Notes under the pieces: model-generated | Database searches by the model: none | What the model saw: the letters and a program-made list of their open reading frames with translations, nothing else | Told to the model about the DNA's origin: nothing | Program-made: the position numbers and the translations under genes | In this document: in pieces, positions 9,606 to 56,241 of the stretch | Position numbering within the stretch: the first letter of the stretch is position 1 | How the letters are laid out: each line of letters opens with the position of its first letter | Assembly (NCBI GenBank): GCA_016791475.1 | Contig: JAEUWI010000017.1 | Location: 33,957-97,956, forward strand | Direction of reading: 5' to 3' | Length of the DNA stretch: 64,000 nt | DNA from: Candidatus Hydrogenedentota bacterium | GTDB lineage: Bacteria; Hydrogenedentota; Hydrogenedentia; Hydrogenedentales; JAEUWI01

Positions 9606-10688
9606 TCAACCGAAGCCGGCCCCGCGGGTAAGGTCGCCCACGAGGAAGGTGCTCAGGGGCCATACGCCGTTGCTGCCGGGACCGTCGGCCGGGTTGACCG
9701 GGGCGCCGTCCTTGTATTTCATGTAGCTGACATGGCCGTCCATGTAGAGTACATTCACGCCGCCGGGGATGTGGTTGAACTGGGCGGTGGAGGAAATGCC
9801 TTCCACCGACTGGCTCTCATTGCCGGACCAGCCGTCCCACATGGTGATGACACTGCTCTGGGCCTTGGCGGAAGCGCCGGCGTTGTTGATGTCCGTGATG
9901 AAGAAGCGCTCGATGCCTTCGCGGCAGATCTTGTAGCCCGCGGGCAGCTTTCCTCCGTTGTCATCGCCCACCGGGAGGAAGCTCAGATAGGTCTGGGGCA
10001 GGTAGGACGCTCCGGCGGGGATGTCGTGCTGGGAGCGGTTCTGCCACTTGACCACGCGACTCCACTCGGGCGGTCCGCCGACCGCCTGCACCTGGGCCGC
10101 GGAGAAACTAATCTCCGGCTGGCTCGGGGTCGCGGGGTCGTTGTACCACCAGCAGGTGCCGTAGTAGGCGTCCATAATCTGGGAGCCCGTGCTTACGGCA
10201 TAGGGCATGTAGAAGTAGGACACCGGCCAGGACAGGATTCCGTGGCGCACGGCATTGGCGGCGGGCGTGTTGCCCTGGATGCTGTTCACCTGGGCGGCGA
10301 TATCCTGCTTGATGCCGACGGAGCCCGTGAACCAGATTGAAGCGCCGTTGGAGATCGGGGGGCGGTCATTGCGCGAATCGGAAGGGCAGATCATGATGTT
10401 GGGATCGGTCCAATACTCGGGATAGAGCGATTCGCTGTCCACGCCCATGGACCAGATCCAGCCGCCCGCGATCCACTGCGAACCCATGGGAAACTTCTGA
10501 CCTTTACTTTCGTTCGCATAGAGCTTGAAGATCAAGCCCCACTGCTTCAGGTTGTTCTGACAACTGGCCCGCCGCGCCGCCTCCCGGGCGCGCGCCAGCG
10601 CCGGGAGCAGAATCGCCGCCAGTATGCCGATGATGGCGATCACCACCAACAGCTCGATCAATGTGAAACCTCGCCTTCTGCCTGCCAT
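9606..10688 (-). CDS. DUF1559 / prepilin-type N-terminal cleavage-methylation domain protein (Planctomycete-type pseudopilin-like)
   Basis: Start [31 protein letters not shown] with AAGGAGAA RBS. Hallmark N-terminal motif of the family. Confidence 0.85.
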
Positions 10689-15318: not shown

Positions 15319-18300
15319 ATGTGGAATCTACTCCAGGACGAATTGGGCGGCGGCGTGTGGCCGCGCCTGCTGGTGGCGCTGGTGGACACCGGGGCCAAAG
15401 GGCTTATCCTGATGGCTGCGGCAGGCCTGGCCGCGGCGGCACTGCGACGCAACGCCGCCGCGGCACGACACCTCGTGTGGATGCTGGCCCTGTGTGGGTT
15501 GCTGATCCTGCCCGTGGTGTCGCTGATGATGCCGAAGTGGACCCTTCCTATTCTGCCTGCGATTGAGGCCCCCGCCGTGGCGCCGATTGCCGCTACGCCG
15601 CCAATCGCGACGGCACCCGCAGCACCCGTTGTCGTTTCGACGCCCATGACCGAAATCGCGCCAGTGGCACCCAATGTCATCCCCCCTGCGGCACGCAGCG
15701 AGCGGCCAGCCGCGCCAATCGACGCAACGCCGCCTGAATCCGCGCAAGCCCCGATGAACTACGGCGTATGGCTGCTGGCAACGTGGCTCTCTTTCGCCCT
15801 GCTCTCCCTCGCGCCCTTCGCCGCAGGGGTCGTGGCCGTCGCGCGCATGCGCCGCCGCGCTGAAGCCTTTTCCGAGGGCGACCTCCAGGCGCTGGCCACC
15901 GCCCTAGGCCGATGCATCGGCCTGAAGCGTACGGCGCGGCTGTTGCGCAGCCCGGCGGGCTCCATGCCCATGGCCACCGGCTTCATCAAGCCCGCCGTCT
16001 TCCTACCCGACGACGCCCTCGCGTGGTCCGAAGAAAAGCGCCGCGTCGTGCTGCTCCACGAACTCGCGCACGTCAAACGCCGGGACTGCCTGGCCCACGC
16101 CATCGCCCGCACCGCCACCTCCCTCCATTGGTTCAACCCCCTCGCCTGGCTCGCCCTCCGCCAGCTCCGCATCGAGCGCGAACACGCCTGCGACGACCTC
16201 GTCCTCGCCGCCGGCGAACGCCCCTCCGCCTACGCCGAAAACCTCCTCGAAATCGCCCGTACGTTGCGCGCAAGCACCGTCGTCAGCGCCGCCGCCATCA
16301 CCATGGCCCAGAAAAGCCAACTTGAGGGGCGACTGCTGGCGGTCCTCGACGCCGCGCGGAATCGGGGACTCGTCACCCGAAAATTCGCTGTGATTTGTAT
16401 CGCCACCCTAAGCGTGGTCGTGAGTGTGCTGGGTGCCGTGGCCGTAACACGAGAAATTTCCACGACCGGTGATCTCCTGGCTATTGCGAAGCCTGTTAAG
16501 AAGACTTCCCTGGAGAGTTTCTTCGGCGGTTGGAGAAATCTCCCGTTCAAATTGAGCGACGGAGATGCGGAAGCCATCGCCCAGTGTCTCGAACTGACCC
16601 AGAGGTACAACGCAATCCACAACCGTGTGAATCGATACTCACTTCCAGAAGTTCGGGAATCGCTCGAAGCGCTTTTGTCGAAACATCCAGAATTTTTCTA
16701 TGTGGAGCACTTGCTGGGCACCTGGCACCAAATGAATGGCAACACGGCCGTGGCCGAAGACTATTTCCTGCGCTCGTACCGCCACGCTCCCGTGGTGCTC
16801 ATTCAACGTTACGAGCATGCGGACGGAAGTCCGATCGTGGGCGCTGCCATCCGCAAGTTTGAGATCGAGTGCAATCGCGTCCAGGGCGGAAGCTTGGATC
16901 CAAGCCTGAATCTGAAGTACTTCGATTTAACCACGGATTCTGAAGGCTGCGTCTATCTGCCCGTTTATGACACCGTGTACAGGACGAGCACCAGGAGCTT
17001 TCCTGAAGGATTCGACGTTAGTTACCCGAAGCTTGGCTGGTTCGAGAGTCGGGGAAAGGCCGCGATGCTGCCTACGGCGGGCGTGGGAATTGTGGGCGGC
17101 GCGTACGAACAGGCAGTCGCTTCCGACGCAGCGGGAGTGGTCAGGGTAAGCGGCAGGGACTTCCAACTGACCAAGGTGCGGCGCATGGACGCGCCCGAGG
17201 CCTTGGAGCTACTCGAATTCCCCGCATGGCCCCATGAGTTCCCGCACCGCGGCCGATTCCCCGAGTTAGAAGAAGGGGACTGGGATTGCCTGCTCGTCGA
17301 TATCGGCGGAAGGCAACAGTTCCCAAAAGACTTCGACGTGGTTCAGATCCGCGTCTTCGACCACGAAACTCGAAGCGTGCTCTGGGACAGTGATTCGCGC
17401 TATCACAAATTGGAACAGGACGTAGAATTCACGGGCGGTTTCGTTTCCGCTCTCAACAACGCGGTGTTCCTTGCGCGGCGCGGCGGAAAATGGCCCGAAA
17501 ATATCGACCTCTGGTTTCGCGTCGATCTGCTGAAGGATTCGCCGTCCGCCCACCATCACCTCCCCGTCGGCAAGACTGACATGGCCATCACGACCGGGGG
17601 CACCGGTTGGGTCGAAATCGAGGAGGTCCGCGCCGGTTCATGGAACGTCGAGTATTCCGAGGGGGGCGGAGAGGTCACATGGCTCGCGTTGAATCCCGAA
17701 TCGGAATCGCACTGTACCGTGGTGCTCCGGCGCTCGGGTGACTGGGAAGGCGGACGCCTGACGGTTTCCGCCAAGGATCAGCGGGGAAACACCTATTGGC
17801 CGCAATCAATCCACTTCGTGGATTTTGATCGCGCGGAATTAGAAGTGGTGAATTTCCCATTACCTGCAGATCAACTGCTCGAACTCGAATTCGGGCAGGT
17901 CGCGGACCCGACCGACTTTCGGAAGACTTTCTATTTTGACGGGATAGCTCTGGATCCGCTCCTCGCGGCGCCAACGGAAGCCTCTGGCGATAATCCTTCT
18001 ACGGCGAATGCGAGCGGCGATACGCCGATTGCGCTGAACCCACGCACCGAGAGCATACCGGAAAGCCCGGTGAGTCCGGAAACGCAGAATGACAGCGAAC
18101 CCGATGCAGATCGCCCCGACGGTGCGTTCAGCGTCGAATTCCCCGGCGGCTACCGGGCGCACGTCATCGGTGTCGGCGATACAATCGGCGAGGCCAGTGG
18201 TATATTCTGGGCGGCAGACGGTTCTCCAATGGCATTGGCACCGGAGGGAGTAACGGCCGACGTAAGCAACGTCACGCTCCTACCCGAAACCATCGGACGC

Positions 18301-20388
18301 AAGTTCCTTGTCGAGTTGCTACCGCCGCTCAATAGCCACTCCATGACGGGTGTTACGTTTATGTGCAAAATTGAACGGCCGGGCTCCAGCTCGACGATAG
18401 GCAGTAGCGGTTCCGGAGCGTCCCTCAGAAACGCATTTGATGCAACATTTCCTATGAACGCAAAAGATGCCTCGGTCAAAGTCGGAGTCGCTGCCGGACC
18501 TTGGAAAACCGTGTTCAGCGGTTGCATTGGATGCGACACCGGCGTATCGGATAGTGAATTCAGCGCTACATTCAGTGACGTCTTTGACCAAGACGGCGCA
18601 AAGCGGATCACCGTTACTCACAAGTCGCTTGAACAAGAACGCCGAGTGGTCGCTATCGACGCAGCCAGCGCCGCCCACCCTCTCCGAATGACAGTAAGCA
18701 GAGATGGTGAGGAAATGTCGCAATCCGAGTGGATATTTGACGGTATCGCGCCAGAGGAGGCGGAGGAACTTGAGATCCAGATTCGCGACTACGAATGGCG
18801 AACGATACATGGGATTGCGCTCTATCCTCATGAGAAATCAGCCCAATCCAATGGGGAGCAAAGCAGCGCCAACTCAAGCGATTCACCCTACTCAGTTTTC
18901 AATCATGACTATCTAGGCACCCTGCTCGAAGACCCCAATCTTCTGACGCGCATCGCGGGTGACGCCATCACGCCTCCGGCGGCAGACACGTCTTGGGGCC
19001 CCGTCGTGGATGGTCTTCAGGCCGCCGTGCGTTTCATTCCTGAAAAAGAGACGTATGCCCTGGGCGAAACGATTGGGATGGAATACCTGGTGCGCAATAT
19101 CGGGCCAATTCCGCTGGAGTTCTTGTCCAGCAAATGGCGAAATGGTGACCAGTGCTTCGTTACCGACGATCAGGGGAAGAAACGGGCGGGCGGCACATCG
19201 CAAGGCACTGGCCTCAATCCAGTACGTCGCGTCAAACTCGCGCCGGGAGAAGTCGGGGCGATCGAGAGCGCGAGTTTCACGATTATGCCGGAAGCATCAG
19301 GCCGCTCCCCTTTACACCCTGTGGCCACGTGGGCACGTTCTCATGCCGGCATTCACAAGGTGCAGTTCAGGGTCCACTTCCCCGACACGTATGCGAGGTC
19401 GGGGGATAACGCACCCCGGCCTGACGACTGGACCGGCACTTTGATGACAGGGGAGCGGACTATAGAATTTGTTGACGATCCTGAACTGTTCCGTGCTCAT
19501 TCCGTCTTCCAGATTCGTATGGTTGCAGCCAAGCCCGACGACAAAGGCGCGAAGGCATTTCCGCGGGAGGCGAGCAACAGGCCGCCTGATGAAGTCGACG
19601 AACTCTGGCTACTTGATGACGTGTTGGTCGGTGAGGGCGACCTTGCCGCTGTCGGGGCGGTGCCAGGCGCTACTCCGAATGAGTACGCAATTGAAATCAG
19701 ATTGAATGAAAAGGCCTCCGAACGACTCGCGCTTGCCACCGAAGAAAATATCGGCCACCGGATGGCCTGCATGTACCAGGAAATGATTCTCGCCGCGCCC
19801 ACCCTGAATGGCCCAGTGGGCGACGGGAAATTTGTCGTGGGAGGTAAATTCAGCAAGGACGTGGCCGAATCGATGATTTCAGAGATTCGAGCGGCCAATG
19901 CGCTCGACACGAAGGCACCGTTCATGCAACCCAGCACGGCGCCGACCCTCGGCCCTGAAGTCGAAGTCACCATCCGTCATTCGGGGGAAAACTGCATGAT
20001 CGACTTCGACACCGGTAAACTTTTCACGCCGCCGAATTTCAACGGCACGGAAGACGCCTTCGCGTGGTGCGCGAAGAATGGCATTGACGCGGGCGGCGGC
20101 AATCAGGACGAGGTGCGCGGCCTGATCGGCATAGATATAGTTCTCAATCCCGAAGCAAATGCGATCTGGGACGAGGCGGCGACTAATGGCGCGCTGAAAC
20201 ACGACGCTTTCAAGTATGGCAAGCCCGGCAATCCGGTCTACCTCAGCGCGAAGGGCGAGCTGCCTGCGACGTGGACCTTCAAGACGCGCGAGGGCGGTTT
20301 GGGCATTGTCCAGATTCTGGGCTTCGACGATGAAGAACCGCGCGGCGTGAAGATCCGGTATCGGATGCTGGAGAAGGGCTCCGAGTAG
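15319..20388 (+). CDS. BlaR1-type membrane sensor: M56 peptidase domain (HEXXH = HELAH) with a ~1300-aa C-terminal extracytoplasmic extension
   Basis: N-terminal TM helices and the motif LLHELAHVKRRD...LHWFNPLAWL typical of the M56 BlaR1 family; paired in an operon with blaI. Confidence 0.85.
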   Translation: MWNLLQDELGGGVWPRLLVALVDTGAKGLILMAAAGLAAAALRRNAAAARHLVWMLALCGLLILPVVSLMMPKWTLPILPAIEAPAVAPIAATPPIATAPAAPVVVSTPMTEIAPVAPNVIPPAARSERPAAPIDATPPESAQAPMNYGVWLLATWLSFALLSLAPFAAGVVAVARMRRRAEAFSEGDLQALATALGRCIGLKRTARLLRSPAGSMPMATGFIKPAVFLPDDALAWSEEKRRVVLLHELAHVKRRDCLAHAIARTATSLHWFNPLAWLALRQLRIEREHACDDLVLAAGERPSAYAENLLEIARTLRASTVVSAAAITMAQKSQLEGRLLAVLDAARNRGLVTRKFAVICIATLSVVVSVLGAVAVTREISTTGDLLAIAKPVKKTSLESFFGGWRNLPFKLSDGDAEAIAQCLELTQRYNAIHNRVNRYSLPEVRESLEALLSKHPEFFYVEHLLGTWHQMNGNTAVAEDYFLRSYRHAPVVLIQRYEHADGSPIVGAAIRKFEIECNRVQGGSLDPSLNLKYFDLTTDSEGCVYLPVYDTVYRTSTRSFPEGFDVSYPKLGWFESRGKAAMLPTAGVGIVGGAYEQAVASDAAGVVRVSGRDFQLTKVRRMDAPEALELLEFPAWPHEFPHRGRFPELEEGDWDCLLVDIGGRQQFPKDFDVVQIRVFDHETRSVLWDSDSRYHKLEQDVEFTGGFVSALNNAVFLARRGGKWPENIDLWFRVDLLKDSPSAHHHLPVGKTDMAITTGGTGWVEIEEVRAGSWNVEYSEGGGEVTWLALNPESESHCTVVLRRSGDWEGGRLTVSAKDQRGNTYWPQSIHFVDFDRAELEVVNFPLPADQLLELEFGQVADPTDFRKTFYFDGIALDPLLAAPTEASGDNPSTANASGDTPIALNPRTESIPESPVSPETQNDSEPDADRPDGAFSVEFPGGYRAHVIGVGDTIGEASGIFWAADGSPMALAPEGVTADVSNVTLLPETIGRKFLVELLPPLNSHSMTGVTFMCKIERPGSSSTIGSSGSGASLRNAFDATFPMNAKDASVKVGVAAGPWKTVFSGCIGCDTGVSDSEFSATFSDVFDQDGAKRITVTHKSLEQERRVVAIDAASAAHPLRMTVSRDGEEMSQSEWIFDGIAPEEAEELEIQIRDYEWRTIHGIALYPHEKSAQSNGEQSSANSSDSPYSVFNHDYLGTLLEDPNLLTRIAGDAITPPAADTSWGPVVDGLQAAVRFIPEKETYALGETIGMEYLVRNIGPIPLEFLSSKWRNGDQCFVTDDQGKKRAGGTSQGTGLNPVRRVKLAPGEVGAIESASFTIMPEASGRSPLHPVATWARSHAGIHKVQFRVHFPDTYARSGDNAPRPDDWTGTLMTGERTIEFVDDPELFRAHSVFQIRMVAAKPDDKGAKAFPREASNRPPDEVDELWLLDDVLVGEGDLAAVGAVPGATPNEYAIEIRLNEKASERLALATEENIGHRMACMYQEMILAAPTLNGPVGDGKFVVGGKFSKDVAESMISEIRAANALDTKAPFMQPSTAPTLGPEVEVTIRHSGENCMIDFDTGKLFTPPNFNGTEDAFAWCAKNGIDAGGGNQDEVRGLIGIDIVLNPEANAIWDEAATNGALKHDAFKYGKPGNPVYLSAKGELPATWTFKTREGGLGIVQILGFDDEEPRGVKIRYRMLEKGSE

Positions 20389-20397
20389 GCGCGTTAT

Positions 20398-20788
20398 GGA
20401 GGGGGGCCTTTCCAGGCCCACATCTAAACTACCAACGTGAACTTCGGTATTGCAGACGCCCGCGACTCCCGTGTAAAACTCAAAATGGGGAGCTGGAAAG
20501 CTCCCTCTCCATACTATCAGTCCACAGCGCTATGGAGGGGGGCCTTTCCAGGCCCACATGAGAACCACCAACGCGAACTGCGGTGTGACAGGTGCCCGCG
20601 ACTCCCGTGCAAAACTCAAAATGGGGAGCTGGAAAGCTCCCACTCCATACTATCAGTCCACCGCGCTATGGAGGGGGGCCTTTCCAGGCCCACAGTGGAA
20701 CTGCCAACGTGAACTGCGATCTGGCAGGTGCCCGCGACTCACGTATAGACCAAGAAAATGGGGAGCTGGAAAGCTCCCTCTCCATACT
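20398..20788. repeat. Tandem array of three ~136-bp units (20398, 20534, 20670), each holding two REP hairpins in head-to-head orientation (BIME-like), abutting the 3' end of the RAYT gene
   Basis: Units are ~85% identical. Each contains CTATGGAGGGGGGCCTTTCCAGGCCC (the reverse-orientation REP) and GGGGAGCTGGAAAGCTCCCTCTCCATACT (the forward REP). Hairpin stems are GGGAGCT/AGCTCCC with a GGAA loop. The small ORFs here are rejected. Confidence 0.8.
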
Positions 20789-20795
20789 CTCGCTA

Positions 20796-21491
20796 TTAAT
20801 TGTCTTTTTCGAGGTAGATAAACTCCCCCGGTTTTAGTCCAGCTCTATTCGGATTCTCCTTGATATATCCGAAGTAGTATTCGAAGTGGTGATCGCTCCT
20901 TACCAGCCGGTCCCAATAGTCCTCCTGCCAGAGGGCGCCCTTCCGGTTCATACGTTTGTTGATTTCGCGCGCCGTGAAGCCCTTCCACGATTGAAGAATC
21001 GCTCGCAACTTATACTCGCCCAAGGGTCGAAAGAGCACGTGCACATGGTTTGGCATCACCACAAAAGATGCAACATCACAACGCTCGCCATCAAAATGAC
21101 GCAATGCACCCGCCACGATTTCCGCATTGCTTGAATCTCGCAGAAGGCACGAGCCCATTCCCTTGTCCAGCCAGCCGTCGATGCGCTCCATGAAGATCCC
21201 ATAGTATTCGCGCTCGGTAGCAACACCCCAGGGGCGCGGATTGTGTTTCAACCACGCATCTTTTTCTTGCCGCCACTGCCGAAGCAGCGCAGCCGGCAAG
21301 GAATCGCCCAATCGCCATGTTACGAAGCACCAGACATCTCCCTGCTGCCAGTGAGGGAGCCGGTTGTGCTTGATATCGATTTCGCCGCCTCGCTGAAAGA
21401 AGGATGGGGAACAATCGTCTGGCTCCGTGGAGGGGAGTTGCTTCGCGAGCGGATTTTCTATTTCATGGCCTTCAGCCTCGCCGTACGTCAT
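20796..21491 (-). mobile_element. REP-associated tyrosine transposase (RAYT; IS200/IS605-like HuH Y1 transposase)
   Basis: HuH motif VVMPNHVHVLF; RLPHW motif; C-terminal LWQEDYWDRLVRSDHHFEYYFGYIKENP, which compares with the E. coli RAYT segment WQRSYYDHVIRNE...IWDNP. AAGAGGG RBS. Flanked on both sides by REP hairpins. Confidence 0.8.
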
Positions 21492-21513
21492 GCTTATGCC
21501 CTCTTAATTCGGG

Positions 21514-21670
21514 GGCTGGAAAGCCCCCGCTCCATACCTCACATGCCCCGCTCCGACAATCTTATACACCAACGTCGTAACACCCTTGGGACTTCGGGGG
21601 CTGGAAAGCCCCCGCTCCATATCTCTCATGCCCTGAACCAGGACTGGGGAATCCCCGCTCCATACTTGCA
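21514..21670. repeat. REP copies on the 5' side of the RAYT gene: two GGGGGCTGGAAAGCCCCCGCTCCATA at 21516 and 21598, plus a degenerate third
   Basis: Seen in sequence. Same orientation as the forward REPs of the array at 20398-20788. Confidence 0.7.
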
Positions 21671-21694
21671 TGTTCGTTGAATCCAATACCATGC

Positions 21695-23617
21695 TCAGGG
21701 AAGCATTTCGCCCGTGAGCCAGGCCATGGAAAAGCGGGCGAAGCGTATCCATTCTCGGCGGTGCTTTTCTCCGCCTTCGAAGAGGATGCCGATGTCGCCG
21801 TTGGAGAGCTGCACCAAAGTGGAGTAGGACGAAGGGCCGGCGTGGATGAGTCTCTTTACGGGCCAGGTGGCGCCTTCGTCGTAACTCATGCGCACCGTCA
21901 TCTTTGTTCGCTCCACGACGCCGTAGAGCTCGCCGAAGTTGTCCGGGTTGGCGAAGAGGAGGCCGTCTTTCCCGCCTGTCTTTCCGGCGCTGTAGCGCAG
22001 GATGCTGGCCTGGCAGGGGCACTCGTTGAGGGCGGCGTCCCAGCGCACGGTGGACCAGCTCGCGCCGCCGTCGGCACTGGTGGCCACGCCGCGGCAGCTC
22101 CGGCCCATGTTGCCGCGCATGTTGAGCATGAGGCGCCCATCCTTCAAAGACACCACCTGGGACTCGTCGGAAAGCTCGGCCACGGGCGCACCCATGGTCC
22201 AGGTGTCGCCGCCGTCGTCGCTGAACATGACGCAGGAGCGAAAGTTTTCTTCCATTTCGATGGTGGCCTCGCCGGTATAGCCGGGAATGATCAGGCGGCC
22301 GTTGTCCATCTGGACGCCGATGCCGGGGCCGGGCACGAAGCTATCGTCCGCGTTGACGATGGCCTCGGTAATATCGCGGGGCGCGGACCAGGTCTTGCCG
22401 TTGTCCGCGCTCTTGAGGACGAGGCAGCGGTGGTGGCCGGGGGCAGTCTTGTGGGCGTTGATCCCCACGAGCACCACCTCGTCCGTTTTCCGGTTTATCA
22501 CGACACAGGGATTCATGAGGGCTTCCGCGCCGGTTCCCGGCACGAGGGTCTGGACGGGGAGCCAGCTCTTGCCTTCGTCGAGACTGCGCCGCAGCACCAT
22601 GTCGGTCGGGCTGGCATCGTCCTGCGCGATCTTCCGCGCCTCGCAGAAGGCCAGCAGGCTGCCGTCGGACGCGGTGATCATGGCGGGGATGCGGTAGGTG
22701 CTCACGCCGCCCTCCCCAGCCACAAAGACATCAGTAAAGACGGGTTCACCGGCCGGGCGCGGCGCGGGCGCGCCCATGGCGACGCGAAAGCCGATGTGGC
22801 TGTGCTCCGCCTTGGGTTCTTCGTGGTCGCGCCGCGATGAACGGCATCGCCCGCCGGTGGCGGTCCAGCCCCCGCCGCGCAGCACGCGGTGCGCGGCGAA
22901 GGACGGCCCGGCGGGGTCCACCGATTCGCCGTCGAAGTAGTAGCCGTGCCAGTCCTGGCACCATTCGGAGACATTGCCGCTCATATCGTGAAGGCCCCAC
23001 GGATTGGGGAGTTTCTTTCCCACGGGCTGTGCGCTGGCGTCTTTACCGGCGGGGACGGTTCCACGCCACCATGCGTGGGCATCGATCTCCACGTAGTCGA
23101 GGTCGTCGCCCCAGGGAAAGCGCGTGGTGGTGCCGGCGCGGCACGCGTATTCCCACTCCGCCTCGGTGGGCAGGCGGAGGTCTTCATTCAAGTGATCCGC
23201 GAGCTTCTCGTTGAAGGCTTGCGCCGCCTCCCAGGATATGTACACGGCAGGCGATGCGGGGTCGTCCGACACCTGCTCACGGCCGCCCCAGGGACTCGTG
23301 CCCATGACCGACTGCCACTGGGCCTTGGTGATTTCATACTTGCCCATCCAGAAGCCGCGGGTGAGGGTTACTGGGTGCCGGGGCGTTTCCTTGTTGGGGT
23401 AGGCGTCGCGCTCGCCCGGGGCCTGGCCCATCTCGAAACTGCCCGCCGGAATCCAGACCATTTCCAGGGGAACGCCACCCGGCAGTTCCAGGGTACGCAC
23501 GGCGCCTGCGGCGGGGGCTTCCGCCGCCGTGGCGGCGGCGGTGACCGTGATGAACAGACCCAATACGAAAAATGTCGCCACAGACAAGATGGCGGGGAAC
23601 AAACGTCGAATCATCAT
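21695..23617 (-). CDS. Secreted fusion protein: FGE-sulfatase (SUMF1-like) domain joined to a BNR/Asp-box sialidase (GH33-like) domain
   Basis: Signal peptide. FGE-type motifs YISWEAAQAF, GNVSEWCQDW and RVLRGGGW. Then a RIP motif (YRIPAMITA) and five Asp-boxes (SLDEGKSW, SADNGKTW, SDDGGDTW, SADGGASW, SYDEGATW). Confidence 0.85.
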   Translation of the reverse strand: MMIRRLFPAILSVATFFVLGLFITVTAAATAAEAPAAGAVRTLELPGGVPLEMVWIPAGSFEMGQAPGERDAYPNKETPRHPVTLTRGFWMGKYEITKAQWQSVMGTSPWGGREQVSDDPASPAVYISWEAAQAFNEKLADHLNEDLRLPTEAEWEYACRAGTTTRFPWGDDLDYVEIDAHAWWRGTVPAGKDASAQPVGKKLPNPWGLHDMSGNVSEWCQDWHGYYFDGESVDPAGPSFAAHRVLRGGGWTATGGRCRSSRRDHEEPKAEHSHIGFRVAMGAPAPRPAGEPVFTDVFVAGEGGVSTYRIPAMITASDGSLLAFCEARKIAQDDASPTDMVLRRSLDEGKSWLPVQTLVPGTGAEALMNPCVVINRKTDEVVLVGINAHKTAPGHHRCLVLKSADNGKTWSAPRDITEAIVNADDSFVPGPGIGVQMDNGRLIIPGYTGEATIEMEENFRSCVMFSDDGGDTWTMGAPVAELSDESQVVSLKDGRLMLNMRGNMGRSCRGVATSADGGASWSTVRWDAALNECPCQASILRYSAGKTGGKDGLLFANPDNFGELYGVVERTKMTVRMSYDEGATWPVKRLIHAGPSSYSTLVQLSNGDIGILFEGGEKHRREWIRFARFSMAWLTGEMLP

Positions 23618-24024
23618 GCTCTCCTCACGATTACAGTCGAATTACGAACCGGGATCTTGTAACACGATAGCGGCACAAAGCAACCGAACTGCCGTGCTTC
23701 GGTCCGGCTGCCGAGATTGAGAGCGCTATATCTTAAAGGGCCTCGGACATGTCTGAGGCAGAGTGCGCCTCGGTCGACAGCGCCCAACAGGAGGTCCAGT
23801 GCCACTACATCGTAATCGAAGTCATTCCCACGAAAGTGGGAATCCAGAAAGCGGCGAAGTACACGTCGCAAGTTCTCGCCATCCCCACTTTCATAAGGAT
23901 GACACCCCCCAGATTGCTTCACTAATTCACTGTGCCCTTTGAACATTAAGATGGGCGTTATCTCAGGCAGGAATGACTAAGCCCCTTTGGTGTTGCCTCT
24001 CTTGGGGGCGCATGTTCAATCGCT

Positions 24025-25380
24025 TCAGCTCACCATGTCCTTGTGTAGATCCCAGGGCGCGCGGACGGGCCGGCTGAGCATGGCGGTGGCTTCGGTATCG
24101 TCGAGGATCTGCTCCTTTTCCGGGTTCCAGCGCAGCGGGCGGTTGAGCCGGATCGCGATGTCGCACAGATGGCTTATCGTGTCGGAGCGAATGGCGGCTT
24201 CGAGGGGGCTCACGGGTGTCTCTCCCGTCTTCGCGCAGTGCAGGAGATCGCCCATGTGGCTCGTGGTCTCTTTCAGGCGTACATCGCTCTCTTTGAATTT
24301 CACCTTCAGGATGTCAGGGTTGCTGGCCAGGATACCGCCGCGATCGACGCTGACCCAGCCCTCGCTTCCGAAGAAGGTCGTGCCGTGGTCCTTCCAGGGG
24401 CGGTAGACCGAAACAATCGGCTCCGCTACGCGGTGTCCCATGAAGCGGAGCTTCACGCCGCTTTCATAGACGCATTCCGTGTCCCAGGACTCGATGGTGT
24501 CGTAGAGTCCCTGTGTAGGGAGGCTTCCCGTGCCGCTGTACTGCACGGGGCTCGTGTGGTCTGTGCCAAGCCCCCATTGGACGATATCGAGGGGGTGGGC
24601 GCCCCACCCCGCGATAAAGCCCAGGGCGTAGTCGTAGAGGTGATAGGTGCCGTAGCAGGTACAGCGATCGACGGTGTAGGTTCGCTCGGGCGACGGGCCG
24701 GTCCAGCGATCAAAATCAAATCCTTCGGGGACCGGCGCAGGCTCCGTACTGCCGTACTGGGGCACACTGAAGGCGGCGTACTGGCTGGAAATATCGGCGC
24801 ACCACGCATCCACGCGGGAAACCTCGCCGATGTAGCCGTTGCGGACGAGTTCGCAGGCCTGGCGGAACTGGGGCGCGGAGCGTTGCTGGGTGCCATACTG
24901 GATGACGGTTCTGTGCTCCGCCGCGACGCGGCGCAATTCCCAGGCCCACTCCATGCTCACGCCCAGGGGCTTCTCCACATAGATCGCCTTGCCCGCGCGC
25001 GCCGCCGCAATCGCGATGGGCACGTGCCAGTGATCGGGCGTGGCGATGATCACGGCGTCGATGTCCTTCCGGGCGAGCACCTCGCGAAAGTCGGCATAGG
25101 CCTGGACCATGTTGCCTTTGTAAAAGGTATTCAGCTTGTCCCGAGTGGATTCCCGCCGATCCGTGTAGCAATCGCTCACGGCGAGAAACTGGGCCTCCGG
25201 TCGGTGCACGGCGTCATTGAGCAGACCGCTTCCGCGCCCGCCCGCGCCGATGAGGGCGATGTTAACGCGATTGCTGGGCGCATCGTTGCCCCAGGCGCGC
25301 GCGGGAAGAATCAGGGGCACCGCGAGCGCGGCCGACGACCATTTCAAGAAATCCCTGCGTGAAGACGGGTGCGTTTTCAT
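24025..25380 (-). CDS. Tat-exported Gfo/Idh/MocA family oxidoreductase
   Basis: RRDFLK Tat motif; NAD-binding IGAGGRGS; EKPL motif; GGGAG RBS. Confidence 0.9.
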   Translation of the reverse strand: MKTHPSSRRDFLKWSSAALAVPLILPARAWGNDAPSNRVNIALIGAGGRGSGLLNDAVHRPEAQFLAVSDCYTDRRESTRDKLNTFYKGNMVQAYADFREVLARKDIDAVIIATPDHWHVPIAIAAARAGKAIYVEKPLGVSMEWAWELRRVAAEHRTVIQYGTQQRSAPQFRQACELVRNGYIGEVSRVDAWCADISSQYAAFSVPQYGSTEPAPVPEGFDFDRWTGPSPERTYTVDRCTCYGTYHLYDYALGFIAGWGAHPLDIVQWGLGTDHTSPVQYSGTGSLPTQGLYDTIESWDTECVYESGVKLRFMGHRVAEPIVSVYRPWKDHGTTFFGSEGWVSVDRGGILASNPDILKVKFKESDVRLKETTSHMGDLLHCAKTGETPVSPLEAAIRSDTISHLCDIAIRLNRPLRWNPEKEQILDDTEATAMLSRPVRAPWDLHKDMVS

Positions 25381-25401
25381 GGTGTAACTCCCGGGGACCT
25401 G

Positions 25402-27048
25402 TTATTGTTTCGGTTGAGCGGCGTTCATGACGGCCATTTCCTGACGGAGCCGGTGGCTGTTCCACACGCCGGGATGGACGACAATACGGTAGTGAAGGGC
25501 GAGCGTCTCCCCCACTTTGAGGGTGCGGGGCGCGCGGTAGAGCAGAGCGGGACTGAAGTAATGAAAGTTGTTGTCCGGCTGCGCGATGACATACCAGGGT
25601 GACGACGGGGCGTTGCTTCCCTCGCGCAACAGCATGGCAAGACCCACGGGGTGGCCATCAATCACGCCACTGAAATCCAGAGCGCGGGCGTCGAGATTCG
25701 CCTGGGGCGCGTCCAATGCCACAGGGCCCGCTTCCGAGTTTACTTCCGCGTCGATCATCAGGCTGAAGCGCATGGAAAGACCGGCGTAGCCGCCCCAGGA
25801 TTTTCCTTCCGGCTCGCCCTCGATGGGCGTGCGGTCCAGCACCACATCGGCATTCAGGGCCTTGAAAGTCGCATCCCAGTCGATGGTGCAGGCGCCCATC
25901 CAGTCCGGTGGAGAAAGATGTAGCGTCCGCGACTCTGCCAGCACAGGCTTTCCCGGATCGATTTCGTAGCGCAGGTTGAATTGAACGACGGCGGAACCAT
26001 CGGCCTGTGTGTCAATGACGGGCGCGTCCCAGAGCGTCCTGCCGTCGGGCAGTCCAGTTTCCCGGCTCTCTTCCCAGAAGTTAACGCCATTGATAAACTT
26101 CCAGGAGAACCACAGCGCGTGGTGCCAGGGGTGATCCGGCGGGGCTTCCCAAGTCAAGGCCGGGCCTTCAGCCAGGGCCAGGGGGTGAAAATAGGGCTTC
26201 CGGGCGTCCTTCCCGAAGTTCAACTGCCAGAGGGTGGCGCCGTTCAGTTTCAACGCTAGTGCTTCACCCGTCTGAGTCCATTCGAGGTTCCGGGGCGCTG
26301 GTGGAACGGAGCCCGTTGCGGCCCAGGCCACCGCGCGCCGGAGCAGCGTGGCAAAGGCGGGATGGCTCATGGCGCGGACGTGATGGCCGAGGAGGAAGTT
26401 CACGCTGCGGCCCTTGCCGAAGTCTCGACTGAAGAGAATCGGCTCTTCGTTTCCGGTGCCGCGAAATTCCGGGTCGGACCAGGCCGTGGCGAGCACCTGG
26501 GCCTCCGGGGGAACGGGAACCTTGTGCCAGAGCTCGTCGAAGGTGGTGAAGTCCGCCATGCCTTCGGTGATGGGATGCGCCACGCCGGATGATTTCACGG
26601 TAAAGTGATGCTGCTTCCCGTGTCCCGTGTTCTGGAGGTCCCAGGCGGTGATCGCCATCTTCTGGTAGTCCGCCCAATCGTAGAACGAGGAAGACCCGGC
26701 GTGGACGGAGACGAAGCCCTTACCTCCGGCGACGAACTCGATCAGCGCGCTCCGCGCCGCTTCGGGCCAGCCTGTGGCGGCGGCATCGCCCCAGTTGTTC
26801 CAGTTGCTCAGGATCACGTCGAATCCAGCGAGGTACTCGGCTGTCATGGTCTCGGGTTTATCGAGCACCGCGACCTCGGCCCCACCCTCCTTTTCCAGGA
26901 TCTCGCGCAGCTTCGGCGTCGTCTCCCGCCACTCGTGGTTATTCTGTCCGCTCAGGAGCAGCACCTGAAGCGGATCGGCGAATGCGGGGGCAACCAGGCA
27001 AACGACCACCAGGGCCAAAGACCAGATTGAGATTGTATGGACGCGCAT
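25402..27048 (-). CDS. Secreted ThuA-like (class-I glutamine amidotransferase-like) domain protein with a C-terminal extension
   Basis: Signal peptide MRVHTISIWSLALVVVCLVAPAFA; ThuA-type N-terminal domain (VLLLSGQNNHEW...). Confidence 0.7.
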   Translation of the reverse strand: MRVHTISIWSLALVVVCLVAPAFADPLQVLLLSGQNNHEWRETTPKLREILEKEGGAEVAVLDKPETMTAEYLAGFDVILSNWNNWGDAAATGWPEAARSALIEFVAGGKGFVSVHAGSSSFYDWADYQKMAITAWDLQNTGHGKQHHFTVKSSGVAHPITEGMADFTTFDELWHKVPVPPEAQVLATAWSDPEFRGTGNEEPILFSRDFGKGRSVNFLLGHHVRAMSHPAFATLLRRAVAWAATGSVPPAPRNLEWTQTGEALALKLNGATLWQLNFGKDARKPYFHPLALAEGPALTWEAPPDHPWHHALWFSWKFINGVNFWEESRETGLPDGRTLWDAPVIDTQADGSAVVQFNLRYEIDPGKPVLAESRTLHLSPPDWMGACTIDWDATFKALNADVVLDRTPIEGEPEGKSWGGYAGLSMRFSLMIDAEVNSEAGPVALDAPQANLDARALDFSGVIDGHPVGLAMLLREGSNAPSSPWYVIAQPDNNFHYFSPALLYRAPRTLKVGETLALHYRIVVHPGVWNSHRLRQEMAVMNAAQPKQ

Positions 27049-33621: not shown

Positions 33622-36600
33622 TTATTCCGTGGTGACGGGTATTAACTCGAAGGGGCTGAACAGCCCATAGGCCACGTTGCTGTACTCCGTTCCGGCGGGC
33701 GGCCCCGCTTCAGGGGCCTTACGGAAGTGCTCCGGCCCGGCAAGTCCCGGCGCGGCATTGCCGTGGAAGGGACCCATGGTGTTGCGGGGCGTACCGATGA
33801 CGAGCACCTCCACGGTGTTGGCGCCCGATTTGATTAGTCCTTTCAGATCGCAGGTCCAAGGCTGACGCCAGATGTAACCCGCGGAAGTCCCATTGACACG
33901 CACCTCGGCCACGCTGCCACACCAATCCGAGAGTGCGACACGATAGATACCGGCTGCATCCGCGATCTCATAGGTCTGGGCGTAGCACACGGTGTCACCG
34001 TACATGGGCATACCCTGATCGCGCCAGGGGCCGGGCTGGAGCGCTTTGGCGGTGGTTATGCTGAATCCCTTCTCAACGGCCTCCAGTGCGAAGTCTCCGA
34101 GCACATAGATCGCCGCGATTTCGTGCAGCATGGTGAAGGGCGTGGCCGCCAACTCCAGCGTGTTCTCCCCTTCGCGCGCCAATTGCCCGACGTCAATCAC
34201 GCCAAAGGACTTGTCAAACCACCAGACTCCGGGAAGGGCGCCGACCGCCTTTCCATTGAAGGTCATCGTGTAAAGATCCGGACTCTCCACCACAACACGC
34301 AGGCCCGCGGGCGGGGTCCCGGCGATGTTGAAGCGATAGGTCGCCGTGAAGCCGCTCCCTTCGGGAAAGGACTTGCTGATGAGGTCGTCTTTGAATTGGA
34401 CGGCGTGATCCCAGGGATTGTGATCGAGGCCGTGCTGCTGAAAGGCGAACTCGGCCGCGCGGCTATAGTGGATGCCTTGCAGGGATTTGCCCTGGGCCGA
34501 CACATCGACAAAGTCAACGGTGAGTACGTTGGGCTCGGTGGCCTTGACAGCCATTGGCGCCGTGGCTGCCACCGGACCGCCTGCGATTCTGGTCACCACC
34601 GGCGCGGCGTCCTCGCCGTTGGTTTGCCATTCGAGCAGCAGACTTCCCGCAGGGGGTAGTTCAAAAGTGACCGGTTCGCCGGCGGCGGCGTAGGGCGCAA
34701 TCTCGCCACTTTCCAGATTCCATTGCCGCACGGCAAGTCCGCCACTCGACAGGGTGCCCCGAGTCGGATTCTCCAAACTGCTGTTGACCAGGAAGAGCAG
34801 TTGCCCGCCGTCGAACTGGCGCCGATGATGATAGAGTATCCCTTGATCCCCTGCGGCGCGTTGAACGATTGCACTGTCCCCCAGGAGCGTGTCTGCGATG
34901 GTATCGGTAGAGGCTACGGTCCATCCGGCGGCCATCTTCGCGACCGCTTCGGACTTCACACCACCGATATAGCTGGGCGAGTCGCCCGCACAGGAGTAGA
35001 CGATGCCGCCGTTCTTAACAAACTTCTCCAGCAGCGCGGCGGTTTCCTTGTTGAGATTTTCCAGCAGGGGCGGAATGACGATGGTATGGTATGCCCGCTC
35101 GCCCACGACGAAGCGGTTGCCCTTTACCGCACCGTGATCGGCGATAATGTCTTCGCAGCCCAGATCAAACTCCACCTGGGCCTGGGCCAGCTTCACCACG
35201 AGCGCCTGAAAGGCGTCGCCCAGGGCCGCGCGGGTATCCGCCGGTTCTCCCTGGTACATCCACGCCGTTGTGGTGGGCTCCAGCACGAGGATTTCATTGA
35301 CCTGTTCGCCGTGGGTAAGTGCAGCGGAGAGGCGCGCGAAGTAGGTTGCGGGGACGTGGTAGGCCTCCCACCAGGGGCTGTGATAGGAGAAGGACGGCGG
35401 GTAATCGGCCTTGCGCGCGCCGCGCATGGAGATGCGCGACAGGTGCTCGTCCATGGTGTTGACACCCAGCACATAGAGCCAGTCGCCGATGCGCTTCATG
35501 TCTTCAAAGCGCGTTTCCCATCCTGCGCCTCCGTAGGCCTCGCAGAGGGTGCGCTCCTTGCCGAGCTGATTGGCCACGCTGGAGAGCTCCAGCACCGACC
35601 GCGTGTTGCCAAACTGGGCGTGGACGCCTTCGTCATACTGGTTGAACAGGGTGTCGATGGCCGGGCGCTGGTGCCAGGCATACATCGCCATGTTGTCCGG
35701 CGCCGTGGTGGCGTCCGGCCAGCCGTGTTCCCAGTAGTGCCCGGTAAATTCGATGCCTTTGGATTCGCAGTAGTCGTAGTAGGGCCTGGCCCAGCGCTCG
35801 ACAAAAAGGTCCAGCAGGGTCTGGTAATAGTTGTGACGAACCCGACGCCAATCCCCCACCGGCTTCGAAAGGCTCGCCAGATTCTCCGTGAGGCTGTAGC
35901 CCCAGCGCTTCGAAAACTGCTCCGGCAGATCGGGGGTCCAGTGAAGCTGTCCGCCGGGACGCAGGTGGGGTTCGTCAGTGAATACGCCCGGCATGCGCTT
36001 GCCAAACTGGTCACCGATTTCACGCTCGTAAGCGCCCATGGTAATTTCGAGAAACTTCTGGGTTACACCGGGGTGCAGCAGGTCTACATAGCTCCATCCG
36101 CCGAACCAGGGCGACTCTTTGGCCAATTCGATGCGCACGGCGAGGTAGGAACCTGGCCCCGATAGGGCGCCGGACTTGACCGAAGCCGTAACCTCCGTGC
36201 TCTGCTCGCCGTCAATTCGAAAGACGGCCAGCATGTCCTCCGTCCACGCCGGTGGCGCATCGAGGGGCTCGAATTTCAGTCCGATGCCACGGGACTCCGG
36301 CATCGCCTGGGGCACGTAGCCCCCGGCAAACCCGGACGGGTAGGAGTTTTCGTCGTAGATCCAGATGTTCATGTCCAGACGCTCAGCGGTCTCCAGCGCC
36401 TTTTTCCAGAGCCGGAACCAATCGTCGGACAGGTAGGGCGTCATGAGACCGGGGCGGGGATGGATGAAGGGCTGTCGGACATTCTGGGATGCGAGATCCT
36501 CCAGCGTGGAGACGATCTGCTCCTCGGTCAGCATGTCGTTCCAGACCCAGAGCGGACCGGTGGTGTACTCGCGGGTGGGATTGGCAAAGAGGGTGCGAAG

Positions 36601-36684: not shown

Positions 36685-36974
36685 GGCGGCATTCCCTTTC
36701 GAAAGGTTAGCTGCCAACCTGCCATTGTGTGGATCTTAGCACGCCCGCGACCGCGATCCAACTATGTTTTCGCGTCCGGTTGCTCGGACCGCGGCCCAAT
36801 GTTTCACGACGACGGCCACAAAGAGCACGAAGAAGAATCGGGAGGAAAGAAATCACCCCCCGACTGCGATTCCTCCTGCGAGCCAGGCAATTCCAGTTCC
36901 ACGTCAATTCTTACTTGTCTTTGCGCCTTCGCTTGCGGGAAATTCAGTAACCACCGGTAGAACCGGTGGTATGA

Positions 36975-36992
36975 GGAAGGCCCCTGAAAGGG
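36975..36992. repeat. REP-like hairpin variant GGCCCCT-GAAA-GGGGCC in an intergenic region
   Basis: Seen in sequence. G-rich stem with a GAAA loop like the REP family, but no flanking T-run. Confidence 0.3.
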
Positions 36993-37175
36993 GCCGCGGT
37001 GGAAGTATATACTGTCAAAGGCGGTTAGCCTCGTGCATTATTGTCTCAAAGATTGACGGTGGAGCGGTGGAGCCTGCTGAATTCTCGCCGGCATTGCCGG
37101 TGGGTCAGCTTGGATTTAGAATGCATACAAGGATTTACCGAGCGCCCTCCGAAGGCCTGCAGCAGGGTAATCTCG

Positions 37176-55883: not shown

Positions 55884-56241
55884 TGGTGGAGGCGGCGGGA
55901 ATCGAACCCGCGTCCGAAAGTGTGTCCACGAAGGCGTCTACGTGCATAGCCCGTCTTTTAAGATTCGCCACCCGGGATCGCGTGAGGCTCGCTATCCAGG
56001 GCCGCTAGGGGGAAACCTACTCTATCGGACGTTCCACCGACGTTCCGACGCGAGACCCGCTGTCGTGCGTCTTAGCCCCTTAGCAGGTGGTCAAGGGTAA
56101 GACGAGGCGGCAATTAAGCAGCCATTGCGAAATCGTGTTGATCGTTCGCAGTTAATTGGGTTCCGGTTTTTTACGAGGCCACCGGAGTCCTCGGCACGCA
56201 ACCAACGTTTCATCCACCCCCGTCGAGACCATGTCGCCCCC
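55884..56241 (-). ncRNA. ssrA: tmRNA (ssrA), ~358 nt
   Basis: Minus-strand RNA. The 5' end GGGGGCGACAUGGUCUCGACGGGGG and the 3' end GGACGCGGGUUCGAUUCCCGCCGCCUCCACCA form a tRNA-like acceptor stem, T-arm and CCA. Tag reading frame GCG AAC GAT CAA CAC GAT TTC GCA ATG GCT GCT TAA gives ANDQHDFAMAA. Confidence 0.85.

Follow-up and report, generated by a model that had tools for sequence, protein, structure and literature searches.

A probable REPtron with GGAG-tagged hairpin repeats in a Candidatus Hydrogenedentota genome

In contig JAEUWI010000017.1 of a Candidatus Hydrogenedentota bacterium (GenBank assembly GCA_016791475.1), a 231-aa open reading frame (ORF) lies on the minus strand at 20,796–21,491 of a stretch of 64,000 nucleotides (contig positions 33,957–97,956), which was analysed as a whole and is called here the window; the ORF is bracketed by short hairpin repeats. 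The locus raises the question of whether the gene and the repeats form a REPtron, i.e., a REP-associated tyrosine transposase (RAYT) with a cognate family of repetitive extragenic palindromes (REPs), or whether the repeats owe their presence to an inserted mobile element, to functions in RNA or to local duplication. The analysis conducted in the present study indicates that the region is very probably a REPtron, composed of a class-2 RAYT/TnpAREP-type Y1 HUH enzyme and its own REP family. This reading is based on the family, fold and motifs of the protein, on the structure, covariation and dispersal of the repeats, and on the linkage of the gene to tagged hairpins throughout the clade of its homologues. 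Roughly one in four sequenced species carries a RAYT/REP system (PMC5581495, PMC6006769).

The protein and its repeats

The ORF encodes a Y1 HUH enzyme of the RAYT type. Its sequence contains the motifs VVMPNHVHVL, RLPHW (residues 44–48), YYFGYIKENP and HHFEYYFGYIKENP; the HUH motif is His149-Val-His151, and the putative catalytic tyrosine is Tyr209, within Y209-IKE-NP. The Pfam family Y1_Tnp (PF01797) matched residues 136–212 with 38 bits at a cut-off of 23, and the best NCBIfam model was the RAYT equivalog REP_Tyr_transpos (NF047646, E-value 4e-20), the match being limited to the core of the protein (residues 117–219). A phmmer alignment with the E. coli TnpAREP (PDB code 4er8) superposed the HUH motifs and placed Tyr209 on the catalytic Tyr115. 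AlphaFold 2 modelling with an input of 32 homologues yielded a structure with a pLDDT of 81.8, in which residues 1–45 are disordered; this N-terminal part of about 45 residues is disordered or variable. The Foldseek search of the model against the PDB revealed the closest similarity to chain A of 4er8, the TnpAREP bound to a REP (E-value 9.7e-6, target TM-score 0.62), and all of the top 29 matches were TnpAREP or IS200/IS605 TnpA structures, the 28 that follow 4er8 belonging to IS200, ISDra2 and IS608. The HUH histidines and Tyr209 are invariant across the 32 homologues, as are Y, I, N and P of the Y---NP motif (Y209-I-K-E-N213-P214) in the clade; the ORF is intact and every clade-invariant residue is present. 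The initial annotation of this ORF had likened its motifs to those of the E. coli RAYT, which holds for the HUH and tyrosine regions, but RLPHW does not belong to the E. coli RAYT motifs and turned out, in the alignment of the 32 homologues, to be a signature of the N-terminally extended clade of this protein.

The protein carries the class-2 signatures NHVH, WQ and Y---NP (class 1 has Y---Q), and these motifs place it in class 2 of Quentin et al. 2018 (PMC6006769). Among the subclasses, 2.7 fits best, since, besides the class-2 motifs, the protein has a long N-terminus of variable sequence, a core of about 102 aa that is visible to HMMs, and no domain at the C-terminus; the subclass assignment is based on motifs and REP design, not on the profiles of those authors. 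D194, R195 and R198 occupy the positions of the E. coli GTAG-contacting residues E100, H101 and R104, as in the described subclasses 2.5 and 2.7. A search by name in the supplements of Quentin et al. for Chlorobium, Planctomycetes, Verrucomicrobia and Hydrogenedentes gave no match, the species being coded there.

The REP is a 26-nt module. On the strand that looks active, 5'-TATGGAG is followed by the first arm of a G+C-rich stem of 8 bp, by a TTCC tetraloop and by the second arm; on the complementary strand the order is stem-GGAA-stem-CTCCATA, with the consensus GGGGGCT-GGAA-AGCCCCC-N-CTCCATA. The GGAA loop and the CTCCATA tail had been recognised in the initial annotation, and its stem of 6–7 bp needs extension to 8 bp, the 'N' that precedes CTCCATA forming a further pair with the base on the 5' side of the stem. 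The conserved 'tail' makes best sense on the opposite strand, where it becomes a 5' tag, (TAT)GGAG, which stands at the hairpin foot like the canonical GTAG; by analogy with characterised systems (PMC8266576), this tag may plausibly serve in guiding or recognition.

A search of the window with the pattern GGGGSCTGGAAAGSCCCCNCTCCATA, with up to three mismatches allowed, found nine matches, with 0.00 expected by chance, at positions 1026(+), 20395(−), 20488(+), 20531(−), 20624(+), 20667(−), 20761(+), 21511(+) and 21596(+); the strands are those of the pattern, opposite to those of the GGAG tag, which are given below. Together with a degenerate copy with an intact tail, the window contains ten REPs, and nine of these flank the RAYT gene within 1.3 kb, three upstream and six downstream, in accordance with the original view of a RAYT bracketed by its own REP family.

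The upstream REPs, two direct copies and a degenerate third, as originally described, lie in the interval that separates the RAYT start from the stop of an FGE-sulfatase/BNR gene running in the same direction. The consensus type-A copy at 21,511–21,536 (−), with no mismatches to the pattern and belonging to the direct-repeat families D2/D3, lies 19 nt upstream of the RAYT start and reads 5'-TATGGAG-CGGGGGCT-TTCC-AGCCCCCG on the minus strand. A second type-A copy, at 21,596–21,621 (−), is 85 nt from the first, in a tandem 85-nt unit; both copies are perfect. The degenerate REP (GGACTGGGGAATCCCC + GCTCCATAC) occupies 21,641–21,665 (−).

The downstream REPs form a tandem array at 20,391–20,788, between the convergent 3' ends of an M56-peptidase gene and the RAYT gene; Tandem Repeats Finder reported 2.9 copies of 136 nt with 87% matches, and the three units of about 136 bp with one inverted and one direct REP, as initially annotated, are all present. 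Every unit is an inverted REP doublet, in which type C (TGGGCCT/AGGCCCC, GGAG on the plus strand) is followed by a spacer of about 67 nt and by type B (GGGAGCT/AGCTCCC, GGAG on the minus strand), and the units are connected by a 17-nt linker. The type-C copies, all matching the pattern, are at 20,395–20,420, where the plus strand reads 5'-TATGGAG-GGGGGCCT-TTCC-AGGCCCA, 20,531–20,556 and 20,667–20,692 (+); the type-B copies, which match it as well, are at 20,488–20,513, with the tail CTCCATAC, 20,624–20,649 and 20,761–20,786 (−), the last of them 10 nt downstream of the RAYT stop. On the minus strand, which is the sense strand of the RAYT gene, the type-B REPs are followed by CATTTT, a short, terminator-like T-run, and the copy at 20,761 may be the terminator of the RAYT transcript. 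Types B and C were seen only at the RAYT locus and its orthologues, and the three-unit array is therefore a local tandem amplification of one doublet; a single orthologous doublet is present in locus L057. The minimum free energy structure of the 136-nt unit pairs both REPs, with an energy z-score of about −1.6 relative to shuffled sequences, i.e., not distinct from them.

The remaining copy is a single, dispersed type-A REP with the tail CTCCACA at 1,026–1,051 (−), which matches the pattern and is located in the 92 nt that separate two genes of the same strand (stop at 1,055, start at about 962), as had been noted for positions 1026–1049. The Hydrogenedentales bin.359 (L007) retains this REP at the orthologous site, with its stem disrupted by two substitutions. 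A further candidate, the hairpin around 36,975 that the initial annotation listed as a variant of the family, was rejected; this hairpin, GGCCCC-TGAAA-GGGGCC, lacks the GGAA/TTCC loop as well as the CTCC/GGAG tag, and it was not recovered even with six substitutions allowed. The intergenic gap at 36,940–37,010 contains this and an adjacent, also perfect hairpin, ACCACCGGT-AGA-ACCGGTGGT; neither is related to the REP family, and the two may form a pair of terminators.

An alignment of 103 distinct REP copies, with 500 column shuffles as a control, confirmed the 8-bp stem. At the 'N' position, the pairs C:G (38 copies), G:C (20), A:T (13) and G.T/T.G (10) were found; 93% of the stem cells are paired, and pairing drops to 39–65% in slid registers. 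Double, compensatory changes were found in 71 cells, compared with 19 ± 3 in the shuffles, none of which reached 71. The pairs switch from G:C to A:T and C:G in the inner stem, from T:A to A:T at the loop-closing position and among C:G, G:C and A:T at the outer position.

Dispersal of the repeats and their linkage to homologous genes

A strict pattern, in which the loop, the tail and a part of the stem were fixed, was searched for in 185,579 species-representative genomes and found at 67 loci, 65 of which belong to three Hydrogenedentales assemblies, namely JBHEKR01 bin.359, JBIJDL01 (Lake Mendota) and OW818658.1 (a 7.9-Mb chromosome). The repeats constitute, as originally supposed, a dispersed family and are not restricted to the window. 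Segments of the window are syntenic with and 86–90% identical to two of these REP-bearing assemblies; together with the dispersal of the repeats in Hydrogenedentales, this shows that the host belongs to Hydrogenedentota (FCB group), in place of the Planctomycete-like genome assumed before. Two single matches lie outside this order, in a Methanosarcinaceae metagenome-assembled genome (MAG) (L010, position 2752) and in an Anaerolineae MAG (L035, position 1150), the latter with an imperfect stem and a perfect loop and tail; these were set aside as chance or unrelated matches, and may also represent bin contamination or a related REP family.

In the related genomes, about 72% of the copies are paired in inverted doublets whose tags point outward and whose modal length is 116–122 nt; 39 doublets were found in the three genomes, with several spacer subfamilies. 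A crude gene caller of the greedy type, which wrongly predicts a 91-aa ORF within the array, placed 73% of the copies in intergenic regions, compared with a non-coding background of 12%; a first intergenic test, which used open frames of at least 150 codons, was uninformative in DNA with 61% G+C (0.55–0.71 vs 0.92).

The exact protein was found only on three contigs of 1.2–1.6 kb, all of which end in repeats; one of these contigs (L003) is short of one 85-nt unit relative to the window. A 95% identical orthologue at the same locus (L072, repeats at 60–430) has the same layout. The 85-nt upstream units number one perfect copy in L003, two and a degenerate one in the window (L003 being compared with 21,508–21,633) and five in L072, and this difference between samples or populations reflects either real length polymorphism or assembly collapse. 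A 72% identical orthologue (L071), encoded in another Hydrogenedentales MAG, resides in an unrelated neighbourhood and has doublet arrays on both sides; these repeats have the same GGAA/TTCC loop and CTCCAT/ATGGAG tag, with the covarying stem GGGGACT/AGTCCCC. At this locus, the called ATG start of the RAYT gene is located inside a REP tail (9978–10003; CTCCATGG), and adjacent doublets abut via the palindrome CTCCATGGAG, as if the units had been joined exactly at their tags. Equally built hairpins, with GGAG, 8 bp and a TTCC or TCC loop, flank each of the homologues with an identity of 54–59% that were found in a Chthoniobacter-like verrucomicrobium, a Kiritimatiellia MAG, a further Hydrogenedentes MAG and a genome of 6 Mb.

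The linkage of gene and hairpins was assessed at 80 metagenome loci encoding homologues with 45–64% identity, by counting GGAG located 0–2 nt 5' of a perfect hairpin, with dinucleotide shuffles as a control. GGAG-tagged hairpins were found at 61 of the 80 loci (247 sites), compared with 7.9 sites in 7.2 loci in the shuffles, and 150 of the 247 sites lie not more than 150 nt from the gene; GTAG and GTGG were found in the same position only 12 and 15 times, respectively. The stems are of 8 bp (150 sites) or 7 bp (81) and the loops of 3–4 nt, mostly TTCC, TCC and TCT. The types of stem and loop shift with the divergence of the proteins, TTCC loops with GGGGACA-type stems being found at 51–64% identity, TCC/TCT loops with CCGGGGCG stems at about 55%, and CGGCGGTT stems with TCC/TACA loops at 45–50%. 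The outermost hairpins have the +/− orientation at 21 of 43 loci. Many of the homologues bear the name 'type I restriction enzyme R subunit' in JGI annotations (P0008–P0010, P0017, P0022, P0032, P0110), and in a few of them further domains (PF04313 HSDR_N, PF17761, MoaE) have been fused or merged with the protein; such labels and fusions are probably annotation carry-over or run-through of gene calls across REPs that are translatable in frame.

Sister-genome comparison and rival explanations

The chromosome OW818658.1 is collinear with window positions 18,864–25,694, with an identity of 87–90%. Missing from it are the 1151 nt at 20,515–21,665, which comprise two array units, the RAYT gene and three REPs; a single C/B doublet is left. 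Each of the two junctions is located precisely after CTCCATAC, the left-hand breakpoint being the tail of the type-B REP at 20,488–20,513 and the right-hand one the tail of the degenerate REP at 21,641–21,665. The RAYT cassette could have been inserted at a REP tail, or, equally well, the segment could have been deleted between the directly repeated REPs at 20,488 and 21,641; such a deletion could have proceeded by recombination or have been catalysed by the RAYT itself.

These breakpoints fit the suggestion that gene and flanking tagged hairpins together constitute an IS200-like mobile unit (a 'TIRtron' or insertion sequence, IS) which was inserted here, and not a domesticated, vertically inherited RAYT. 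The unrelated neighbourhood of the 72% orthologue points in the same direction, as does the simplest layout in the clade, where one tagged hairpin stands on each side with the tags outward, in line with the outermost orientations given above. We consider this suggestion rather improbable, because deletion between the two direct REPs explains the indel just as well, hairpins and doublets are dispersed without the gene, and a second copy of the gene was seen neither in the window nor in the 67 REP loci; moreover, the protein has the class-2 Y---NP and not the class-1 Y---Q, scores below the cut-off of the IS200 equivalog NF033573 (30.4 vs 55 bits), and its gene has an M56 peptidase and an FGE-sulfatase/BNR protein as neighbours, with no tnpB among them. 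The two readings are not exclusive. Much less likely is that the hairpins are mainly RNA or transcription elements (terminators, stabilisers of mRNA 3'-ends, GNRA/UUCC tetraloops) spread by recombination or by a miniature inverted-repeat transposable element (MITE), with the Y1 gene being irrelevant. The T-run after the type-B REPs on the RAYT sense strand, the REP at 1026 in an operon gap, the mostly intergenic location of the repeats and the carriage of doublets by a MITE in bin.359 would all agree with this, but gene and hairpins are linked at 61 of 80 independent loci across phyla, a conserved tag and loop are outside terminator logic, both orientations are present, and the T-run is missing from most copies; a scan of the whole window at Rfam gathering thresholds gave no match at the REPs, only a tmRNA elsewhere. 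A role in RNA would also be compatible with processing by the RAYT, as for the E. coli REPs. As for a local duplication or a chance cluster of palindromes next to the remnant of a decayed transposase, nine of the ten copies in the window do lie within 1.3 kb, and types B and C were indeed seen only at the RAYT locus and its orthologues; the dispersal in three genomes, the expectation of zero chance matches, the intact ORF and the covarying stems refute this explanation, the probability of which is practically negligible.

Several observations weigh against the REPtron itself. The profiles proposed in the initial annotation as a check gave a divided answer, the protein scoring above the cut-off of Y1_Tnp but below that of the RAYT equivalog, its best NCBIfam model (72.1 vs 80 bits). 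The canonical foot tetranucleotide GT[AG]G is absent, with GGAG in its place. The related genomes contain only 12–34 strict or 14–51 relaxed matches, which is low for a REP family; in the window's own genome, one extra copy, that at 1026, is visible in 64 kb. A tblastn search with the RAYT against the 67 REP-bearing 8-kb loci, which were all that it covered, found no homologue, and the gene is not at the orthologous site of OW818658.1. Changes in the number of array and 85-nt units can arise from slippage or unequal recombination. Binding, cleavage chemistry, mobility and any benefit to the host are inferred.

In bin.359, furthermore, at least eight doublets lie inside an element of about 210 nt with 19-nt terminal inverted repeats and target duplications of 9–10 bp, which is a MITE with a DDE-type signature, with the REPs as cargo. 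A part of the dispersal in that genome is thus hitch-hiking that needs no RAYT. The terminal repeat of this MITE is absent from the window. The element was seen at loci L017, L018 (about 290–500), L025, L030, L031, L039, L060/L004 and L063; its ends are CAGGGCAATCGCATTAAAA ... TTTTAATGCGATTGCCCTG, and the flanking duplications include GGGAAACGGT, GGTTCAAGTC and TCGGTATCA.

If the region is a REPtron, its mode of action can be proposed from characterised enzymes. The TnpAREP proteins of E. coli, S. maltophilia and Marinomonas bind and cleave folded single-stranded REPs in a strand-specific manner that requires the 5' tetranucleotide; short perfect REPs additionally need specific loop bases, and the REP tag takes up the position that the guide has in IS608 and affects whether a CT or a CA cleavage site is chosen (PMC8266576; PMC3479197). 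By analogy, the protein would act on single-stranded DNA, e.g., at replication forks, and would bind the folded REP, recognising the shape of the stem and the sequence of the loop and of the 5' GGAG tag, as suggested by the invariance of tag and loop across the clade, while the stem keeps only its pairing. Cleavage adjoining the REP would be performed by Tyr209, with the metal held by His149 and His151, and the strands would then be rejoined, so that single REPs and doublets may be excised, copied or re-inserted; the preferred dispersed unit is the inverted doublet of about 120 nt with the tags outward, similar to a REPIN or to a bacterial interspersed mosaic element (BIME). Secondarily, the hairpins probably serve in RNA as structures that end or stabilise transcripts, e.g., the type-B REP with its T-run after the RAYT stop.

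Other features of the window include the M56/BlaR1-like peptidase gene at 15,319–20,388 (+), which is unusually large (1689 aa), encodes a SecDF P1-head-like domain near the C-terminus and has its stop codon 3–7 nt from the first REP of the array. A full-length tmRNA gene (Rfam RF00023, 185 bits) is located at 55,884–56,241 (−). A scan of 20,300–21,800 for sigma-70 promoters gave no match.

Comparison with known systems

On the whole, this is a fairly ordinary REPtron, in which a domesticated transposase gene for single-stranded DNA has around it the small hairpins that it presumably moves, and it is unusual mainly in the GGAG tag where the textbook tag is GTAG, and our understanding of RAYT/REP systems is unchanged by it. 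The initial annotation overstated the novelty by referring to knowledge centred on Proteobacteria, since RAYT/REP systems of Planctomycetes, Acidobacteria, Cyanobacteria, Bacteroidetes and other groups have already been catalogued (PMC6006769 Table S1; PMC3733652). Nevertheless, REPtrons are extended here to the uncultured phylum Hydrogenedentota, and no paper linking RAYTs with Hydrogenedentes was found in the literature search. The GGAG-tagged variant looks widespread, and no description of it was found in the papers searched. Subclass 2.6 and class 3 are already accepted as having atypical tags; GGAG itself occurs once in Table S1 of Quentin et al., in subclass 2.2 (PMC6006769), and the main text of the 2013 paper by Di Nocera et al. 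(PMC3733652) does not contain it.

Tentatively, and with a probability that we place a little below even, a large clade of RAYTs and their REPs may represent a third 'tag' superfamily beside GTAG and CGTC, characterised by GGAG, a perfect 8-bp stem and a TTCC/TCC loop; the proteins of this proposed clade would be N-terminally extended, with the signature RLPHWQQG, and be widespread in Hydrogenedentota, Verrucomicrobiota, Kiritimatiellia, Chlorobia and many metagenomic lineages. If so, the one-base change from GTAG to GGAG with the D/R/R contacts kept would be a natural switch of specificity, which could be used to probe the tag as an IS608-like guide for the choice of the cleavage site. With loop and GGAG fixed and stems covarying over protein identities of 45–95%, the clade provides a clean natural data set for RAYT–REP co-evolution; it predicts which parts of the REP the enzyme recognises by their sequence and which by their shape, a prediction that is testable with the published cleavage/strand-transfer SELEX (systematic evolution of ligands by exponential enrichment) assay. 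In practical terms, the arrays break metagenome assemblies, leaving the exact gene only on contigs of 1.2–1.6 kb, and the homologues are often misnamed.

The REPtrons of subclass 2.7 (Quentin, Siguier, Chandler and Fichant 2018, PMC6006769) are alike in their protein motifs ([ND]HVH, WQ, YIxxNP and D/R at E. coli positions 100/101) and in the architecture of the protein, with no C-terminal domain, a long variable N-terminus, an HMM core of about 102 aa and a full length of about 213–231 aa. The design of their REPs is similar as well, with a 4-nt 5' foot tag, a perfect stem of 7–8 bp, a pyrimidine-rich loop of 3–4 nt (TCC, TCT, TTCC) and a location flanking the gene, e.g., GTGG-GGTGGGCA-TCC-TGCCCGCC in Anabaena cylindrica and GTGG-GGCAGCCA-TTCC-TGGCTGTC in Solibacter usitatus. 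They differ consistently only in the tag, at its second base, with GT[AG]G in subclass 2.7 and GGAG in the present family (TATGGAG here, A[AC]GGAG in relatives); in addition, the host phylum Hydrogenedentota was not included in the survey of Quentin et al.

The E. coli TnpAREP (RayT/YafM, 4ER8; PMC3479197, PMC8266576) is the best structural match, with the HUH motif and catalytic tyrosine aligned, and its gene is likewise flanked by inverted REP pairs with a conserved tetranucleotide at the 5' foot, although the sequence identity is only 16%. The REP of the window is short and perfect, that of E. coli long, imperfect in its palindrome, bulged and tagged with GTAG; the C-terminal tail with which the E. 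coli enzyme contacts the tag has no counterpart in the window protein, which instead has a two-helix insertion of about 45 aa (residues 67–109) after strand β1. The doublets resemble REPINs (Bertels and Rainey 2011) and BIMEs, in which inverted pairs of REPs with a spacer are also the main dispersed unit, several subfamilies exist per genome, the location is mostly intergenic and tandem arrays lie beside the RAYT gene; they differ in the long (about 67 nt), variable spacer, in a long-hairpin fold no better than that of shuffled sequences, in tens rather than hundreds of copies and in the embedding of one subfamily of a related genome in a DDE-type MITE. Di Nocera et al. 2013 (PMC3733652) likewise described REP superfamilies defined by terminal tetranucleotides (GTAG, CGTC) and tyrosine-transposase genes flanked by inverted repeats, and the motif GGGGWSAS of the terminal inverted repeats of their TIRYT 'TIRtrons' resembles GGGGACAG of the GGGGACA-GGAA-TGTCCCC hairpins of the clade; most TIRYTs, however, belong to subclass 2.1 and have a C-terminal helix-turn-helix domain, which the window protein lacks.

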